From positions 1-64,000 of the IMG/VR virus record IMGVR_UViG_3300020049_014895: 64,000 nt of DNA; one strand, given 5' to 3'. Origin of the DNA: a virus (lineage: Duplodnaviria > Caudoviricetes). Shown here one piece after another: positions 1-62,960 of this stretch. The notes below the pieces were generated by a model, which was not told the DNA's origin, made no database searches, and worked only from the letters and a program-made list of their open reading frames with translations. Every line of letters begins with the position of its first letter. The stretch's first letter is position 1. A program made the translations under genes and the position numbers.

Positions 1-85
1 CAATGTAGTTAATGAAGTAGTAGGACAACCTTTTGAAACGGTTACGGATTTAAATGAATTAGAAGATGATGGACTGCCTTTTTAG
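1..85 (+). CDS. C-terminal fragment of a single-stranded DNA-binding protein (partial)
   Basis: Frame from nt 2 reads ...NELEDDGLPF-stop; an acidic DDxLPF tail is typical of SSBs; precedes a replication module. Confidence 0.55.
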   Translation, partial: NVVNEVVGQPFETVTDLNELEDDGLPF

Positions 86-1834: not shown

Positions 1835-2697
1835 TAGCACCAATAGCAATAAAAACAGATTTAACTTCCTTAGATAAGGATTTTAATAAAATACACGATG
1901 AGCATTTTGTTTCAGTTGATGAGATTTTAAAACCTCAACCCGTTGCAATATCGATAGGACACACAAAATATAAAGAAACTAATTACCCTATTCCTATGGG
2001 TTCGTACGGTGACTTTTCGTGTATTGTAGGAGCATCAAAAGCAAAGAAATCATTTTTAAAATCGCTTTTAGTGGGTGGTTATATTGGTGGGAATACTGTA
2101 ATTAACGCACCCGAAATAAAAGGACATCGATTAACAGATAAGTACGTTATAGACATCGATACAGAGCAATCAGAATATCACTCACAAAGAGTTTTTAAAA
2201 GGGTTGTCGAATTAGTAGGGGTTAACCCTGATTTTTATAAACCGTTTTCTTTGCGTAAATTGTCAGCTAAAGAACGTTTTGAGTTTATCGATTGGTTATT
2301 TACAAAAAGTCAGTATGTAGGTAATATCGGTTTAGTTTCAATCGATGGGGTTGCGGATTTAGTAAACGATGTTAACGATTTAGAAGCGAGTAATAACGTT
2401 GCTCAAAAGTTGTTAGAGTGGAGTGCTAAAGAAAATTGTCACATTATAACCGTGTTGCACCGTAATTTTGGGACTAAGAAACCAACGGGGCATTTAGGTA
2501 GTGCAATATTAAAAAAGGCAGAAACAGTTATATTTGTTGAAAAGGAAAACGAACTTACTTTAGTCAATCCCGAATACACCCGTAACCAACCATTTGAGCC
2601 GTTTGCGTTTGCAGTCGACAGTAATTGGTTACCTTTTGTGGTAGATTATAAAGTTTCAGACAAACCAATTAACAACAAAGAAAAACCTAAATTTTAA
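1831..2697 (+). CDS. AAA-family (RepA/AAA_25-like) replicative helicase/ATPase
   Basis: Walker A-like GASKAKKS, IDTEQS, Walker B-like SIDG, and C-terminal VLH...GHLGS motifs. Confidence 0.75.
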   Translation: MIAPIAIKTDLTSLDKDFNKIHDEHFVSVDEILKPQPVAISIGHTKYKETNYPIPMGSYGDFSCIVGASKAKKSFLKSLLVGGYIGGNTVINAPEIKGHRLTDKYVIDIDTEQSEYHSQRVFKRVVELVGVNPDFYKPFSLRKLSAKERFEFIDWLFTKSQYVGNIGLVSIDGVADLVNDVNDLEASNNVAQKLLEWSAKENCHIITVLHRNFGTKKPTGHLGSAILKKAETVIFVEKENELTLVNPEYTRNQPFEPFAFAVDSNWLPFVVDYKVSDKPINNKEKPKF

Positions 2698-2830
2698 CGT
2701 TTTGCGGCTTTGCGATGGTGGGGTTTCAAGGCACAAATGTTCAACCCACAACTAATGTTTAATAGAAATACAAATGATGAATTTACAACTTCCGCCCCAC
2801 TATTGCAAAACCGATGTTATGCGTAGTGTT
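2695..2830 (-). other. attC-like cassette recombination site (hairpin)
   Basis: TAAC at 2695-2698 and GTTATGC at 2816-2822 enclose a stem: CGG/CCG and TTTGCGATGGTGGGG (2709-2723) / CCCCACTATTGCAAA (2795-2809), with unpaired bases near the base. Confidence 0.65.
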
Positions 2831-3547
2831 TTAGTCCACGCTGATTGCTTTGATGTGTTTCCTTACATTGCTGATAAAAGCGTAAATCTTATTTTATGCG
2901 ATTTGCCCTATGGCACAACTGCAAACAAATGGGATAGCTTACTTGACTTGAATAAACTATGGAAAGAATACGAAAGGATATTAGCACCAAAAGGAAATAT
3001 AGTTTTGTTTGGTGCAGGATTATTCGCTTTTAAACTTGCTTTGAGTAACGAAAAGTTGTTTAGATACGATATGGTTTGGAAGAAAAGTAAATGTGGTAGC
3101 CCTTTGACTGCTAAATATATGCCAATGAAAAAACACGAAATGGTATTAGTATTTGGCAAAAGTGCTTCATACTACAAGCCACAACTTACAGAAGGAACGC
3201 CTTATAAAAGAAAGTGGACACCAAACAAAGTAAATAATATGGAATACGGAATAGCTGGTGTAATAACCGATAATAAAGGAACAAGACACCCAACAACGAT
3301 TTTAGATTTTGCTCAACAATGGCGAAGGCAAGACCAACTACACCCAACGCAAAAACCTGTTGAATTAGCTAAATGGTTAATAGAAGCATTTTCAAAAGAA
3401 GATGATGTAGTAATGGATAATTGTATGGGTAGCAATACAACTGGATTAGCTTGTAAAGAGTTAAATCGTCAATACATAGGAATTGAAAAAGATAAAAATT
3501 ATTACGATGTTTCGGTTAGCAGGGTGCTGTCTTAACATTACGCATAA
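2698..3547 (-). mobile_element. Integron-like gene cassette carrying a DNA methyltransferase
   Basis: End sites GTTATGCGTAGTGTT (2816-2830) and AACATTACGCATAAC (3534-3548) are 14/15 reverse-complementary, as expected of a cassette that circularises into one hairpin. Confidence 0.6.
2819..3535 (+). CDS. N4-C/N6-A DNA methyltransferase, beta class
   Basis: DLPY (motif IV) near N-terminus, HPTQKP, DNCMGSNTTG (motif I) near C-terminus; the track start at 2774 reads through the hairpin, so ATG 2819 is preferred. Confidence 0.9.
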   Translation: MRSVLVHADCFDVFPYIADKSVNLILCDLPYGTTANKWDSLLDLNKLWKEYERILAPKGNIVLFGAGLFAFKLALSNEKLFRYDMVWKKSKCGSPLTAKYMPMKKHEMVLVFGKSASYYKPQLTEGTPYKRKWTPNKVNNMEYGIAGVITDNKGTRHPTTILDFAQQWRRQDQLHPTQKPVELAKWLIEAFSKEDDVVMDNCMGSNTTGLACKELNRQYIGIEKDKNYYDVSVSRVLS

Positions 3548-3599
3548 CTACTATATAGAACAATCGATTTAAAACATCAATAAAACAAGGAGGTTACAA
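3546..3599 (-). other. attI-like site upstream of the recombinase
   Basis: GTT core at 3548-3546 on the minus strand, with further AAC/GTT triplets at 3559, 3573 and 3584, ending just before the recombinase ATG. Confidence 0.4.
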
Positions 3600-4433
3600 A
3601 TGGATTTTACAAGATGGCACAGCAAGTATTGTACAGATTCTCGATTAAAATATCCGAGCAGTAGAACGCAAGAAAATTATCAATGCTCCGTTAGAACATT
3701 TTTAAAATACTTCGAAAAAGAGATTGATCCGCAACACATTTCAACTGACAAAATTAAACAATGGCTATTAACCTTCGCAACAATCAACACACGGAACCAC
3801 AAACTTTGTGCTATCAAATCATTCTATGAAATTACGGTTGGAATGCCTTTAAAATTAGATAAAATTCCTTTCAGTAAAAAGAATAAGCAATTACCAATAG
3901 TGCTATCAGTAGATGAAATACAACGAATGTTTAATGTATGTGAAAATAAAAAGCACAAAGTTATTTTAGCTTTACTATATTCGTGCTCTTTAAGAGTTTC
4001 TGAATTGATAAACTTAAAGTGGAAACATATTGATCGTAGTAGAATGATTATTAACATCATTCAGGCAAAGGGGAACAAGGATAGGCAAGTAGCCTTAAAC
4101 CAGCAATTGATTGATTTGCTTGCAGGCTATTATCGAGAATACAAGCCAACAGAATACATCTTAAACGGACAATTTGGATTGCAATACTCCGACACTTCTG
4201 TTAATCAGGTTATAAAACAACTCGGAGCAAAAGCCGGAATAGAAAACAAGCGTTTGTACACCCACTTAATGCGACACACATCTGCAACCCACATGGTAGA
4301 GGCAGGAACAGACATTAATTTAATTCAGAAGCTATTAGGCCACTCAAACGTAAAAACAACTGCAATTTACACTCATATTTCGCATAACCATATCAGCAAA
4401 ATTCAATCGCCATTAGCACAAATTAACTTATGA
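3600..4433 (+). CDS. Tyrosine recombinase (277 aa; IntI/Xer-like, no arm-binding domain)
   Basis: Intact R-K-H-R-H-Y set: LRVSE, KGNKDR, HLMRH, LLGH, IYTH; LPIVLS and C-terminal SPL motifs. Confidence 0.93.
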   Translation: MDFTRWHSKYCTDSRLKYPSSRTQENYQCSVRTFLKYFEKEIDPQHISTDKIKQWLLTFATINTRNHKLCAIKSFYEITVGMPLKLDKIPFSKKNKQLPIVLSVDEIQRMFNVCENKKHKVILALLYSCSLRVSELINLKWKHIDRSRMIINIIQAKGNKDRQVALNQQLIDLLAGYYREYKPTEYILNGQFGLQYSDTSVNQVIKQLGAKAGIENKRLYTHLMRHTSATHMVEAGTDINLIQKLLGHSNVKTTAIYTHISHNHISKIQSPLAQINL

Positions 4434-11139: not shown

Positions 11140-11216
11140 GACTTCATTGGTGTTTTGGATAAACATAGCGGGCTTAAAATCCCGAAGATACAAGTTCGAG
11201 TCTTGTATGAAGTCCA
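11140..11216 (+). tRNA. Degenerate tRNA-like element (TAA loop, Leu-like)
   Basis: Acceptor ACTTCAT/ATGAAGT, D arm GTGT/ACAT, T arm ACAAG-TTCGAGT-CTTGT; anticodon arm CGGG-CTTAAAAT-CCCG is one base out of register; short variable loop. Confidence 0.55.
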
Positions 11217-25212: not shown

Positions 25213-25228
25213 GGCTTTGAATTTTTCC

Positions 25229-25266
25229 CAAATATAATCACTAATTTAGAATGATTATAAATTAGA
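25229..25266 (-). promoter_or_regulatory. Late promoter, copy 1
   Basis: 23-bp box at 25244-25266, 7-nt spacer, TATATTTG (25236-25229). Confidence 0.8.
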
Positions 25267-25267
25267 A

Positions 25268-41679: not shown

Positions 41680-41698
41680 GAGATATGATTATTTTCCC

Positions 41699-41736
41699 CA
41701 AATATAATCACTAATTTAGAATGATTATAAATTAGA
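41699..41736 (-). promoter_or_regulatory. Late promoter, copy 2
   Basis: Box at 41714-41736, 7-nt spacer, TATATTTG. Confidence 0.8.
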
Positions 41737-41738
41737 AA

Positions 41739-45260: not shown

Positions 45261-45286
45261 GATTTTTATAGATTAAGTTTATAAGA

Positions 45287-45324
45287 CAAATCTATTAATT
45301 TATTTAGAATGATTATAAATTAGA
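45287..45324 (-). promoter_or_regulatory. Late promoter, copy 3
   Basis: Box at 45302-45324, 7-nt spacer, TAGATTTG. Confidence 0.8.
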
Positions 45325-45335
45325 TGCAAATTATT

Positions 45336-53084: not shown

Positions 53085-53122
53085 TTTGTTTAATTTTAAT
53101 TAAATTTAACTTATACTAATTA

Positions 53123-53160
53123 CAAATATATATTCTTATTTAGAATGATTATAAATTAGA
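53123..53160 (-). promoter_or_regulatory. Late promoter, copy 4
   Basis: Box at 53138-53160, 7-nt spacer, TATATTTG. Confidence 0.8.
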
Positions 53161-53165
53161 GCGAA

Positions 53166-55817: not shown

Positions 55818-55835
55818 TTATGGGAAATTTGAAAA

Positions 55836-55873
55836 CAAATATAAATTATTATTTAGAATGATTATAAATTAGA
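55836..55873 (-). promoter_or_regulatory. Late promoter, copy 5
   Basis: Box at 55851-55873, 7-nt spacer, TATATTTG. Confidence 0.8.
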
Positions 55874-55931
55874 CGCAAAATAAACCCTATCAGTTTTGTT
55901 ATTATAAATTTATTTTATTACATTTGCCAAC

Positions 55932-58490: not shown

Positions 58491-58931
58491 ATGAAAAACA
58501 GAAACCTACCACACAGCGACAATTGGGCAACGCCTTCTTATTTTTACGACCCGCTTAATGCGGAATTTAATTTCGACTTCGATCCTTGCCCTTTATGCTA
58601 CGAAACAATTCCGCAAGAACGAAATGGCCTTTTAATTGAATGGGGGCGAGCCAACTTCATTAACCCTCCATATTCAAAAGAGCTTAAAACGCCATTTATC
58701 CTAAAAGCAATAGAAGAAAGCAAAAAAGGAAAACTTTGCGTAATGCTTTTGCCGGTATCAACATCTACAAAACTTTTTCATGACATAATTCTTCCAAACA
58801 TTTCCGAGCCAATCCGATTCGTTAAAGGAAGAATAAAATTTATAGGACACAACACTAAAGGAGAATTAGTATCAAACAAATCTCCAATGCACGATTCAAT
58901 GATCGTAATTTTTGATGGAAGAAATAAATGA
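58491..58931 (+). CDS. Phage N6-adenine methyltransferase (Dam-like)
   Basis: DNWATP, FDFDPC, NPPYS, VMLLPVSTST motifs. Confidence 0.85.
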   Translation: MKNRNLPHSDNWATPSYFYDPLNAEFNFDFDPCPLCYETIPQERNGLLIEWGRANFINPPYSKELKTPFILKAIEESKKGKLCVMLLPVSTSTKLFHDIILPNISEPIRFVKGRIKFIGHNTKGELVSNKSPMHDSMIVIFDGRNK

Positions 58932-59233
58932 AAATCATCGTACCCAAAATAGAATACGTCCAAGCCGGCATCACCATCGCTATGAGAAAAAAACATTCTC
59001 CGGCACTAACCGTCTTAGCCGAACTCATCCGGCTTAACGAAACTGGAGAAATACCGAAGGCTGCATCCCTTCACAAGCACTTCTCCAAACAATTTAACAT
59101 CAAGCAATCGAAATTCAATAAAATTATTGCCGATCTTATTAACGATGAAATTATCGCCCGGAAACAAAACACAATAACATTCTGCCCAGAACTTACCAAA
59201 CCTACAAACAAAATATTAATACAACAAGCATAA
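58928..59233 (+). CDS. Putative winged-helix DNA-binding protein
   Basis: FNIKQSKFNKIIADLINDEII helix pattern. Confidence 0.45.
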   Translation: MKIIVPKIEYVQAGITIAMRKKHSPALTVLAELIRLNETGEIPKAASLHKHFSKQFNIKQSKFNKIIADLINDEIIARKQNTITFCPELTKPTNKILIQQA

Positions 59234-59910
59234 TGGAAAACATCATCGGATACATTAGAGTGTCAACAGGAGACCAAGAAAACTCCCTCGAACTTCAAGA
59301 AAAAGCAATCAGACAATATTGCTCCTTCAGAGAGCTTAACCTTACCGAAATATTCATCGACCAAGATGTCTCCGGATTCAAACAATTCGAATCAAGAGAA
59401 GGTGGAAAAAATCTATCCGCCAAACTTAACCTCACCAAAAACATCGTTGCCGTTAAGCCCGATCGACTATTCCGAAATACAATCGATGGCCTCACCACAG
59501 TCGATAAATGGAACGACAAAGGTATCTCCCTACACATCGTTGACATGGGAGGAGTAGCCCTTAACACCAAAACAGCCATCGGAAGACTTCTATTTACCAC
59601 ACTGATATCTTTCTCCCAATTTGAACGAGATATCACCGGAGAGCGCGTCAAATCAATTCTAAACGATAAGAAATCTTCTAAGAAAATATACTGCTCGGAC
59701 GTCTTCGGATTCGATAAAAACAATGGAGAACTCATCCCAAACCCAGCTGAACAACAAATATTATCCGAAATTAAACGCCTCACCGAAACCGGTAAAGGAC
59801 CATCCTTCATCGCCAGATACCTCAATAGCAACAACCACAAATCCAAAACAGGTGGTAAATTCTATCAATCTACCATAAACTACATCGTCAAAAATTCTTT
59901 ATACAACTAA
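59233..59910 (+). CDS. Serine recombinase (resolvase type)
   Basis: GYIRVST (catalytic Ser), DVSG, DRLFR, short C-terminal DNA-binding domain. Confidence 0.9.
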   Translation: MENIIGYIRVSTGDQENSLELQEKAIRQYCSFRELNLTEIFIDQDVSGFKQFESREGGKNLSAKLNLTKNIVAVKPDRLFRNTIDGLTTVDKWNDKGISLHIVDMGGVALNTKTAIGRLLFTTLISFSQFERDITGERVKSILNDKKSSKKIYCSDVFGFDKNNGELIPNPAEQQILSEIKRLTETGKGPSFIARYLNSNNHKSKTGGKFYQSTINYIVKNSLYN

Positions 59911-59914
59911 AAAT

Positions 59915-61300
59915 ATGATAAAAATAGGAACTGTATGTAGTGGAATCGGTAGTCCGGAACAAGCAATCAAAGAACTCAACATCGACCACGAAATAGTCTT
60001 CGCTGCCGAAATAGACAAATACGCCAAACAAACATATCTCGCTAACTTCTCCCCTAAGTTCATGCTTAACGACATGACAACCGAAGACTGGAGCCGACCG
60101 GAATTGTATTGCGATGTGTTTTTGGGCGGGATACCTTGTCAATCATTTTCTCTCGCTGGGAAGAGATTGGGGGAATTAGATCCGAGAGGATTGTTGTTTT
60201 ATAACTTTTATGATTATGTGAAGAAGCAGAGGCCGAAATATTTTGTGATAGAGAATGTAAAAGGGTTGTTGAGCGCTGCCGGTGGCAGGACGTTTCAGAA
60301 TTGGTTGGATTTACTTGGCCAGAGTGTGAATAATCAGCATAATATGTTTGTGCATGATGATAGCTTGGGATATAATTTGCATTGGGAGGTGTTGAATAGT
60401 AAGGATTATGGAGTACCTCAGAATCGGGAGAGAGTGTTTTTGGTAGGGATTAGGGAGGATTTAGCGAATGATTTTAGATTCCCGGTAGGTTGGAAGCTGG
60501 ATAAGAGGTTAAAGGATGTGTTGGAGCCGGTAGTTGATGAGAAGTATTATTTGAGTGATAAGATGCTGGAGGGGTTTTTAAATAAAAATGAAGAAAGTAA
60601 AGAGAAGGGTAACGGATTTAATTTCCGCCCAAAAGAAGATGACGAAATTGGCTCGTGCATTACTGTACGAGTGTTTAAGATGGGAGTTGATGATAATTAT
60701 ATAAAAGTCCCAGAGGCAACAAAAAAAGGCTTCGATATCGCCACTGAAGGAGACTCCATTAATCTTTCTAATCCTAATAGTGAAACCCGAAGAGGCCGTG
60801 TTGGCAAGCAGATTGCCAACACTCTTGAGACATCTTGTAATCAAGCGGTAGTGGAACCATTCTGCGTTGCCATGCGAGGACGTAATCCCGAAAACCCCTC
60901 CGACAGAACTACCGGAGCACCTACCGAACAAAGACTCGAACCAAACACAAATGGTGTTGACAACACCATTACTTCCGTGCAAAAAGATAATCTGATTGTG
61001 GAGCCGAAACTTGAAAAGGTAGCGCAAATACAAGGTAAACATGAAAGTAGTGGGAGAATCTATTCTCCCACCGGACTATCTCCTACCATAACAGCCAAGC
61101 AAGGTGGTGGACATGAGCCATTCACTCAAATTAAAAACCGTATACGTAGACTTACCCCGCTCGAATGCTTCAGGCTTCAAGGATTTTCTGACTCATTCAT
61201 TAAGCCCTGCAGCGATAGTCAGACTTATAAGCAAGCCGGAAACACCATCACCGTCAACGTCATTAAAGCAATCCTTAAAAACCTCCTTAAAGCTCCCTAA
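59915..61300 (+). CDS. C5-cytosine DNA methyltransferase
   Basis: CSGIG, PCQSFS, ENVKGL, QNRERV, RRLTPLEC, YKQAGN motifs. Confidence 0.93.
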   Translation: MIKIGTVCSGIGSPEQAIKELNIDHEIVFAAEIDKYAKQTYLANFSPKFMLNDMTTEDWSRPELYCDVFLGGIPCQSFSLAGKRLGELDPRGLLFYNFYDYVKKQRPKYFVIENVKGLLSAAGGRTFQNWLDLLGQSVNNQHNMFVHDDSLGYNLHWEVLNSKDYGVPQNRERVFLVGIREDLANDFRFPVGWKLDKRLKDVLEPVVDEKYYLSDKMLEGFLNKNEESKEKGNGFNFRPKEDDEIGSCITVRVFKMGVDDNYIKVPEATKKGFDIATEGDSINLSNPNSETRRGRVGKQIANTLETSCNQAVVEPFCVAMRGRNPENPSDRTTGAPTEQRLEPNTNGVDNTITSVQKDNLIVEPKLEKVAQIQGKHESSGRIYSPTGLSPTITAKQGGGHEPFTQIKNRIRRLTPLECFRLQGFSDSFIKPCSDSQTYKQAGNTITVNVIKAILKNLLKAP

Positions 61301-61314
61301 AAAGAGCTTTTTTT
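61289..61314 (+). terminator. Intrinsic terminator
   Basis: AAAGCTC/GAGCTTT stem and T run. Confidence 0.65.
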
Positions 61315-61347
61315 ATGGACAAATATAAAAACATATTTAATTTTTAT

Positions 61348-61460
61348 TATATTTGCATCACTGATTCACTATGAAAACATTAAAAAGTCCTATCATTTAC
61401 ATTGCCAATAGTTGCATCCTGCAATAAGTGGATCAGTCTTTGTATTTGGTAGGCACTTTT
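61348..61460 (+). ncRNA. Promoter plus structured 5' leader
   Basis: TATATTTG (61348-61355); ACTGATTCACT (61360-61370) pairs with AGTGGATCAGT (61427-61437) inside stem AAAAGTCCTATCA/TGGTAGGCACTTTT. Confidence 0.5.
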
Positions 61461-61463
61461 ATT

Positions 61464-62045
61464 ATGCAAAATTATATTAAAACATCTGATATTTCTAAGG
61501 AATTTTATTGTAACATAGCTATAGTTAATAAACTCATAAAAGACTTTAGAATACCACACAATCAAGAACAAGCTGGAAACTTATTAGTAGAAAAAGAAGT
61601 ATTTGAAATACTAAAAAAAACAAGAGACCACTATAATAGCAGAATTATTGACATAGAAACACTTAAAAAGCACAGAACAAAATTAATTCCATTCAATAAT
61701 AAAGCATATATTTATTTCTTATTTAATGACGAAGAACTGATATACATCGGACAATCAATTAGTGTAGCTGGAAGAATTGATACGCATAATAAAAGTAAAA
61801 AATTTAATTATGTAACTCTTATATCTGTTCCAGAAAAAATATTAAATATTGTTGAAATGGTTTATATTGGAAAATACAAACCTGAGTTAAATACAACAGG
61901 AACTGAAAACGGAGTGTCATTAAGTCAAATTTTTACTGAAGCATATAACGATAGACCAAAAAAATATGCCCATGTAATATACGATCCAATACCAATTAAT
62001 AACGAAGAATACTCCGAAATAGATTACAACGAATTTCAATACTAA
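61464..62045 (+). CDS. GIY-YIG-domain protein with N-terminal HTH-like region
   Basis: YIYFL...IYIGQS...RI..H...E..YI.KYKPELN; ATG 61464 preferred over the track start inside the leader. Confidence 0.7.
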   Translation: MQNYIKTSDISKEFYCNIAIVNKLIKDFRIPHNQEQAGNLLVEKEVFEILKKTRDHYNSRIIDIETLKKHRTKLIPFNNKAYIYFLFNDEELIYIGQSISVAGRIDTHNKSKKFNYVTLISVPEKILNIVEMVYIGKYKPELNTTGTENGVSLSQIFTEAYNDRPKKYAHVIYDPIPINNEEYSEIDYNEFQY

Positions 62046-62697: not shown

Positions 62698-62960
62698 GTG
62701 TTTTTTGTTTATGGCTTTTTTTTGTTTGTTGTTTGTTTCTTACTATGTATAAAAGTTCTTTGATTATTTGGGCGATTGCCCGCGGTCGCTGTCGCGCCCT
62801 CGTTCACCGGGCTATTCATTCAATCTTTTGTTCGTACCTCACAAAAGGATTTTCTTTCTATCCCTATCGCAAAACCGCGAAACATTTTTAACGTTTTTTA
62901 TTTAATCGTAAATTTATTACTATTTTCGTTTGTGATATTCGTAATTATTTTACGAAAGTT

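Follow-up and report, generated by a model that had tools for sequence, protein, structure and literature searches.

The early region of a phage genome raises the question of whether a compact tyrosine recombinase without the I2 helix of integron integrases (IntI) can capture and reshuffle gene cassettes bounded by attC-like hairpins. The gain of the I2 helix is held to have enabled single-strand recombination in IntI (PMC4792948, PMC7790495), a view that counts against an I2-less recombinase acting on folded single strands. The DNA that we analysed, hereafter the window, is a stretch of 64,000 nt that corresponds to bases 1-64000 of one 74,481-bp IMG/VR virus record, IMGVR_UViG_3300020049_014895.

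The record is 100% complete by CheckV, has no end repeats and, judged by its gene content, is a tailed phage of Bacteroidota. Its early and replication region lies on the plus strand, while the minus strand carries long structural operons, each behind a repeated promoter-like motif that includes TAnnTTTG. This repeat is present in five copies upstream of the minus-strand structural operons (window 25221-25267, 41691-41737, 45279-45325, 53115-53161 and 55828-55874), contains TTTAGAATGATTATAAATTAGA and CAAATATA, the latter reading TAnnTTTG on the coding strand, and probably serves as the late promoter of the phage with a conserved upstream element. At the nucleotide level, the record matches only methyltransferase genes of Flavobacterium, Polaribacter and Cellulophaga phages. 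A tRNA gene at window 11141-11215 (Rfam tRNA, 43.6 bits) could not be assigned by ARAGORN, which reported a four-base anticodon (taaa). The phage encodes at least six methyltransferases, including three cassette enzymes, a Dam-type and a C5 enzyme, and two features mark the region in which the latter two lie:

Window 58491-58931: Dam-type methyltransferase.
Window 59233-59910: truncated serine recombinase, with a Resolvase domain and half a Recombinase domain.

Within window 58491-62045, the truncated serine recombinase is followed by a 461-aa C5 DNA methylase and then by a GIY-YIG protein. The locus that concerns us here lies at the other end of the window and comprises the following features:

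1-11, plus strand: 3' end (GTTA box) of hairpin E2, the remainder of which lies at genome 74361-74481, across the contig ends.
12-2694, plus strand: block of about 2.8 kb between E2 and E1, with four early/replication genes (317-595; 588-1409, DUF6291; 1406-1834; 1831-2697, AAA_25).
2695-3548, plus strand: complete mobile cassette of 854 bp, made of hairpin E1 and the methyltransferase C gene and closed by its own TAAC.
2695-2819, plus strand: hairpin E1 (attC-like), by covariance model and folding.
2819-3535, plus strand: cassette cargo, an N6/N4 DNA methyltransferase.
3534-3548, plus strand: cassette-end box AACATTACGCATAAC, complementary at 14 of 15 positions to GTTATGCGTAGTGTT at 2816-2830, just right of E1.
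3545-3562, plus strand: attI-like junction, TAAC (3545-3548) followed by conserved TACTATATAGAA, 52 nt before the recombinase start codon.
3600-4433, plus strand: compact tyrosine recombinase gene, 277 aa, with a SAM-like core-binding and a catalytic domain.

The recombinase ORF begins with an ATG preceded by AGGAGG, and its stop overlaps the start of a primase-helicase gene (ATGA at 4430), because of which synthesis of the enzyme probably coincides with the presence of single-stranded intermediates of replication. Pfam assigns Phage_int_SAM_4 to residues 15-84 and Phage_integrase to residues 102-263, and detects no arm-binding domain in the 277-aa protein, which thus differs from lambda-type integrases, defined by an N-terminal arm domain and a length above about 330 aa. 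The AlphaFold model (pLDDT 92.8) is helical from residue 3, and its closest structural neighbours are XerA and VchIntIA in its attC complex (TM 0.79-0.80). The catalytic set of tyrosine recombinases, R-K-H-R-H/W-Y, is complete, comprising R132 (in LRVSE), K157/K160 (in KGNKDR, nt 4068-4085), H222 and R225 (in HLMRH, nt 4263-4277), H248 and Y257. Across 56 family members down to 34% identity, R132, K157, H222, R225, H248 and Y257 are invariant, and K160 is kept in at least 90%. The intact active site predicts that the product is an active tyrosine recombinase related to Xer and IntI, a likely proposition within the reading of the whole platform given below.

The spacing between the K box and HxxR separates this enzyme from the integron integrases, being 59 residues here, 50-63 in its family, 62 in XerC and 66 in XerD, as compared with 100 in IntI1 and 99 in a Shewanella-phage IntI. 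When aligned to VchIntIA (2A3V), residues 17-172 correspond to chain positions 16-175 and residues 197-274 to 243-319, such that the recombinase has 24 residues opposite 67 of IntI; similarly, TIGR02249 matches it in two pieces, with model positions 175-238 unmatched. By spacing, by 2A3V and by TIGR02249, the additional domain of IntI, an I2 helix of some 40 residues that lies between the lysine of the beta-hairpin and HxxR, is absent. The XerA alignments are contiguous (4A8E, E 6e-33; 5HXY, E 2e-31), and together with this the protein presents the two-domain layout of about 280-300 aa and the spacing of the Xer type. Curated models place it below every IntI cut-off (TIGR02249, 165.6 bits against 265; NF011946, 93.7 against 435), and therefore we do not call it IntI, as well as below every Xer cut-off (XerA_Arch, the best-scoring, 188.3 against 220; XerD, 165.4 against 329.6; XerC, 164.6 against 335.15). 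In a quick maximum-likelihood tree of 52 sequences, the compact family forms its own clade (SH-aLRT 95), IntI1 and phage IntI form another (99), and both lie far from Escherichia coli XerC/XerD, the node that joins the two being weakly placed. The same tree holds a 289-aa protein (P0210) that has the short 59-residue spacing and no insertion, yet groups with IntI1 and phage IntI (SH-aLRT 99); on this placement, it may stand close to the true integron integrases while lacking I2.

These results largely bear out the first-pass annotation of the gene. All catalytic residues are found, as it stated (R132, K160, H222, R225, H248, Y257), and are conserved in the 56 members; the 277-aa length without an arm-binding domain agrees with the two Pfam domains and with a model that is helical from its third residue; and the proposal of a distinct family finds its counterpart in a recombinase clade separate from that of IntI. 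The statement that KGNKDR runs into HLMRH with no extra segment is correct as to the missing IntI insertion, the spacing being of the Xer type, but loose in its wording, since 59 residues intervene. Likewise, invisibility to IntI HMMs is true in the sense of the cut-offs, but those models still score the protein.

Sequences resembling 2695-2820 were found at the far end of the genome, and three hairpin copies gave a consensus stem of 19 pairs with 11 compensatory pairs. The resulting covariance model detects five hairpins in the 74-kb genome, at genome 72143, 72679, 73512 and 74361 and at window 2695, all on the plus strand and all at most 5.2 kb upstream of the recombinase gene; searched on both strands, the genome has no hairpin outside these five upstream copies. 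E1 opens with TAAC and an unpaired spacer of 5-6 nt (GTTTTG), continues with a covarying stem of 19 bp that encloses a loop of about 70 nt, and closes with GTTA; its stem carries a C.A mismatch and an invariant G.T wobble. In general, the hairpins are 122-132 nt long (about 125 nt), begin with TAACG(T/G)T, have an unpaired spacer with unequal sides (5-6 nt 5' and about 1 nt 3') and end with TGTTA. Taken over the 49 copies that this phage and its relatives provide, 95.1% of cells are paired, as compared with 56.7% after shuffling and 37-48% when the partner is slid; both sides have changed in a compensatory manner in 18 of the 19 stem pairs, and the G.T wobble is invariant in 49/49 copies, so only the plus strand can form the full stem.

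The structured model alone is informative, the short TAAC...GTTA pattern by itself being chance (31 matches versus 32 expected). Folding of the single sequence 2690-2840 gives a z-score of 0.4, which is not significant alone, and covariation across copies is thus needed. An Rfam scan of the whole genome finds one tRNA only and no family that the hairpin matches, so the hairpin is not a described RNA family. The hairpins have the properties of attC sites as regards an imperfect inverted repeat of 57-141 nt, AAC/GTT end boxes and a crossover in the box; they depart from them in that attC lies 3' of the cassette gene and folds on the antisense strand, whereas here the hairpin precedes the gene and has its G.T wobble on the sense strand.

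Two other readings of the hairpin region were considered and set aside. A small ORF in the loop has alike frames in E1, E2 and E4, but E3 has an early stop; and the inverted repeat at 2696-2820 was dropped as an invertible promoter after the cassette ends had been mapped. Inspection of the plus strand of the loop by eye showed no promoter of the TAnnTTTG type. Elsewhere, window 62864-62897 contains TATCGCAAAACCG, resembling a hairpin right arm, followed by TTTTTAACGTTTT; it has no covariance-model match and may be a decayed hairpin site. In the related phage contig L040, the arms of one hairpin lie 1.1 kb apart (259-1437), and the model barely detects it because two ORFs, one of 97 aa and one for an N6/N4 methyltransferase, lie inside its loop. 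Direct repeats TTTGRAACACTAAC flank the two ORFs, which may mark a second insertion point within the loop.

Besides the hairpins, the array has a fixed end. The attI-like sequence TAAC|TACTATATAG lies 52 nt upstream of the recombinase, and in a comparison of 21 loci, conservation was confined to the right side of the last TAAC (TAYTATATR...), the left side changing from cassette to cassette. A locus that keeps the exact 13-nt motif TAAC|TAYTATATR has it once, always in plus orientation, with 42-95 nt between it and the start of the recombinase gene; the one copy in the window is at 3545-3557. The locus thus has the context of an IntI-type system, namely a recombinase gene beside an attI site and an array of hairpin-bounded cassettes, in an orientation inverted relative to classical integrons. 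In another contig (L059, 960-1000), a methyltransferase cassette ends with CACTAAC|TACTATATAACC, which is the attI-like motif; no recombinase gene lies behind it, nor does this 15-kb record contain one.

The first-pass annotation dealt with a single cassette, whereas the genome contains five hairpins and four well-formed cassettes. N6/N4 DNA methyltransferases are the cargo of three of these single-gene cassettes and a DUF7336 protein is that of the fourth, and counter-restriction is the evident selective value of the methyltransferase cargo. In the E1 cassette, the probable methyltransferase start is the ATG at 2819, inside the GTTATG box; an alternative, longer ORF from 2774 would start in the hairpin loop. 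The block at 12-2694 has TAAC boxes at both bounds, but pairing between its ends is limited to 5 bp, so recent mobility as a cassette is improbable.

Comparison with related phages showed that the same cassettes, at 95-100% identity, recur at other positions and in another succession. Five segments of 97.7-100% identity are common to L014 and L016, IMG/VR contigs that come from different samples, but are arranged in a different order, and every breakpoint lies within the TAAC(G) box that opens a hairpin on its 5' side. The 854-bp cassette itself recurs, about 95% identical, in four contigs (L056, L057, L058 and L120). Two of these copies, those in L056 and L057, are complete: their homology runs from 2695-2696 to 3548-3549 and their flanks are unrelated; in the incomplete ones (L058, L120), only the left end is common. 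The L056 copy is internal to an array, with another hairpin coming next, while the copy in the window precedes the recombinase leader. The closest relative, L040, has a recombinase with 92% identity and the same primase, with homology (92% over 2857 nt) only from 3544 onward; left of the junction it carries a different methyltransferase. More distant homologues (74-83% identity) stand behind methyltransferases of three Pfam families, on different phage backbones.

The ends of the cassettes carry a further signature. In 4/5 units, the 10 bases from GTTA are perfectly complementary (14/16) to the TAAC-ending end of the same unit, 536-850 bp away, whereas the physically adjacent left flank pairs through TAAC only (4-5 bp). 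Joining end to start gains about 10 kcal/mol with DNA parameters; E1 in the join of an excised circle has an extended stem of -25.4 versus -15.2 kcal/mol, and E2, which heads the 2.8-kb block, gains nothing. By analogy with integron cassettes, such complementarity is the pattern expected if the units pass through an excised circle.

We surveyed the association across 33 IMG/VR loci found through the recombinase protein. Of their plus-strand hairpin matches, 78/83 lie upstream of the gene, with a density of 0.47 per kb versus 0.02 downstream (median distance, 1.8 kb), figures that are not statistically independent, the loci being related phages. At least one hairpin is present in 20/24 loci that have more than 1 kb of upstream sequence, and members of 37-62% identity, on other contigs and phage backbones, have upstream hairpins too. 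The first-pass annotation had named two outcomes that would tell against action on the hairpin, namely homologues without any association with hairpins and an enzyme confined to duplex sites; the comparative evidence (78 of 83 matches upstream, 20 of 24 loci) suggests that neither holds.

Arrays also occur apart from the gene. In a 42-kb record (G002, IMGVR_UViG_3300033121_001041; CheckV, 97%), eight hairpins form two groups by orientation and no tyrosine recombinase is encoded, which makes the record a phage equivalent of a CALIN. Four further array-bearing contigs have no tyrosine recombinase either. A scan of MAG contigs covered 6 contigs only. In bacterial chromosomes, the hairpin model matches 19/31 genomes of a Bacteroidota family (G006-G037), some matches being clustered (e.g., contig C8 of G024 at 190-205 kb and contig C6 of G018 at 660-680 kb). 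Recombinases of the family are present in 5/5 hairpin-bearing bacterial genomes checked, some of them 1-3 kb from a hairpin and in varying orientation. By analogy with bacterial CALINs, action in trans is likely in some genomes.

Among known systems, the closest parallel is provided by integrons, especially the sedentary chromosomal ones. Both combine a tyrosine recombinase with an adjacent insertion site at a fixed position and an array of cassettes with one gene each; both also present an imperfect hairpin of about 125 nt per cassette with AAC/GTT boxes, a crossover in the box and covarying, strand-specific stems, as well as complementary cassette ends and a predicted recombinase fold near that of VchIntIA (TM 0.8). 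They differ in that the phage recombinase lacks I2, scores below the IntI HMM cut-offs and forms a separate clade; that the phage genes lie on the AAC-first strand, with the hairpin ahead of the gene and transcription toward the recombinase; that the recombinase is co-directional with the array and downstream of it; and that the host is a phage whose cargo is mostly DNA methyltransferases. The asymmetry of attC resides in extrahelical G and T bases, whereas that of the phage hairpin resides in the internal loop of 5-6 nt versus 1 nt and in the invariant G.T wobble. Integron finders use the I2 domain as a marker. In the literature, we found integrons and CALINs in phages and no description of a compact I2-less recombinase partnering such arrays.

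A CALIN has been described in Polaribacter phage P12002L, where attC-like sites flank methyltransferase genes without IntI (PMC9892861); that study names no cognate recombinase and treats the sites as integron-derived (PMC9892861). Our arrays resemble phage CALINs in their methyltransferase genes flanked by attC-like sites, in their occurrence in marine Flavobacteriia phages and in the absence of IntI, and differ from them in having a recombinase dedicated to the array as well as an attI-like site. No homologue of this recombinase is encoded by P12002L, and the 14-kb stretch around its methyltransferase cluster gave only weak matches to the hairpin model (E 0.1-0.8); by this model, in the stretch searched, it does not belong to the same hairpin sub-family.

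A precedent for Xer-type enzymes on folded DNA comes from the integration of CTX phage, in which XerCD, enzymes without I2, recombine a folded single-stranded attP(+) that mimics a duplex core with an unpaired centre. The combination of a Xer-type enzyme lacking I2 with a folded single-strand hairpin, which we propose here, is the same; the enzymes of the CTX system, however, belong to the host and act on one site of a filamentous phage, whereas here a phage-encoded enzyme lies beside many cassette-bounding sites. XerA and XerC-XerD are the best sequence and structure matches of the recombinase and share its size, two-domain layout and K-to-HxxR spacing, but it falls below the curated cut-offs, in a separate clade, and lies in a phage replication operon instead of a dif/FtsK context. 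Finally, the PeSLs of T4-type phages are regulatory stem-loop repeats thought to recombine by homology. Like the present hairpins, they flank small accessory genes in plastic phage regions and mark points of shuffling; unlike in PeSL cassettes, the stem sequence here is not conserved, the breakpoint box has 4 nt, the cassette ends pair, and a recombinase and its site are attached.

Taken together, we consider it likely that the recombinase is the resident enzyme of an integron-like cassette platform, from a phage-centred clade without the IntI I2 insertion. This reading builds directly on the cassettes and their exact ends, the reshuffling between phages, the end complementarity, the attI-like junction, the co-occurrence in the family and the intact active site, from which we infer the recombinase as catalyst, a single-stranded substrate, the exact cleavage bond and resolution by replication. 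A cassette would consist of a hairpin of about 125 nt and one gene, closed by TAAC, in an array that runs co-directionally with the recombinase and always ends at the attI-like site. While the phage DNA is being replicated, a hairpin would fold from its plus strand such that TAAC pairs with GTTA to form the R box, followed by the asymmetric unpaired spacer and by the covarying lower stem as second half-site. Recombinase dimers would bind this pseudo-duplex, as XerCD does on the folded attP(+) of CTX phage, and cut in or next to TAA|C. Exchange between two hairpins would release a circular cassette whose joined ends lengthen the R-box stem, exchange between a hairpin and attI would insert the cassette beside the recombinase gene, and the strand exchange would be resolved by replication.

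The cassettes could also be real and yet be moved in trans, by a recombinase of the host or of a co-infecting phage, with the gene at 3600-4433 serving integration or multimer resolution at a duplex site and TAAC|TAYTATATR being its attP/lox-like site. The missing I2 fits this account, as do the arrays in phage records without tyrosine recombinase and the spread of hairpins and family members through Bacteroidota chromosomes; moreover, the only other recombinase of the phage, of the serine type, is truncated, so the tyrosine enzyme could be the integrase. We nevertheless regard it as unlikely, given that the last cassette is in every case directly adjacent to the site that precedes the gene by 42-95 nt and that the DNA left of TAAC is cassette and not host DNA. 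Besides, the platform is kept on unrelated phage backbones, one locus (L054) has a full-length large serine integrase alongside, by which integration is covered there, and the gene sits inside the replication operon of a complete phage genome, not at a prophage end.

Accounts in which the recombinase does not move the cassettes at all fare less well. According to one of them, the hairpins act at the RNA level in the processing, stability or translation of early transcripts, reshuffling proceeds by short homology, as proposed for the promoter-early stem-loops of T4-type phages, and the recombinase is a bystander. That every hairpin lies on the sense strand between co-directional genes, that G.U is a normal RNA pair and that start codons fall in the loop or right arm would all suit such a role, but the stems differ among copies, which leaves only 7-11 nt in common for homology, and the breakpoints are confined to one box of 4-5 nt. 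The pairing of cassette ends across 536-850 bp makes sense only once these are joined, the other early intergenic regions of the genome lack hairpins, and no Rfam family matches, all of which renders this account improbable. According to another, the protein is a non-catalytic DNA-binding regulator with a recombinase fold. MrpR of SPbeta is described in PMC10516654 as a recombinase-fold repressor that binds repeated sites, and precomputed Pfam results give MrpR_C_cat (PF22823) for the present family, so that the repeated hairpins and boxes might be operators. However, PF22823 is absent from a direct Pfam scan of the recombinase at E <= 0.01, the catalytic R-K-H-R-H-Y residues, the nucleophilic tyrosine among them, are retained throughout the family (K160 in at least 90% of the members, the other five in all), and regulation leaves the reshuffling of cassettes unexplained; we therefore give this possibility very little credence.

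In line with the platform reading, we lean, on balance, toward a broader view, in which hairpin-bounded cassettes are captured and reshuffled by a tyrosine recombinase that either never acquired I2 or lost it. On this view, integron-type chemistry would predate the IntI lineage or extend beyond it, and Bacteroidota phages would own a capture platform through which they trade anti-restriction methyltransferases, with related sites and enzymes in the chromosomes of their hosts. If true, this enzyme would represent a second route to single-strand chemistry, or its ancestral state, and could help explain the many attC clusters (CALINs) that seemingly lack an integrase. It would also provide a compact 277-aa enzyme with defined sites of about 125 nt, and give phages a means of their own for the rapid exchange of counter-defence genes.
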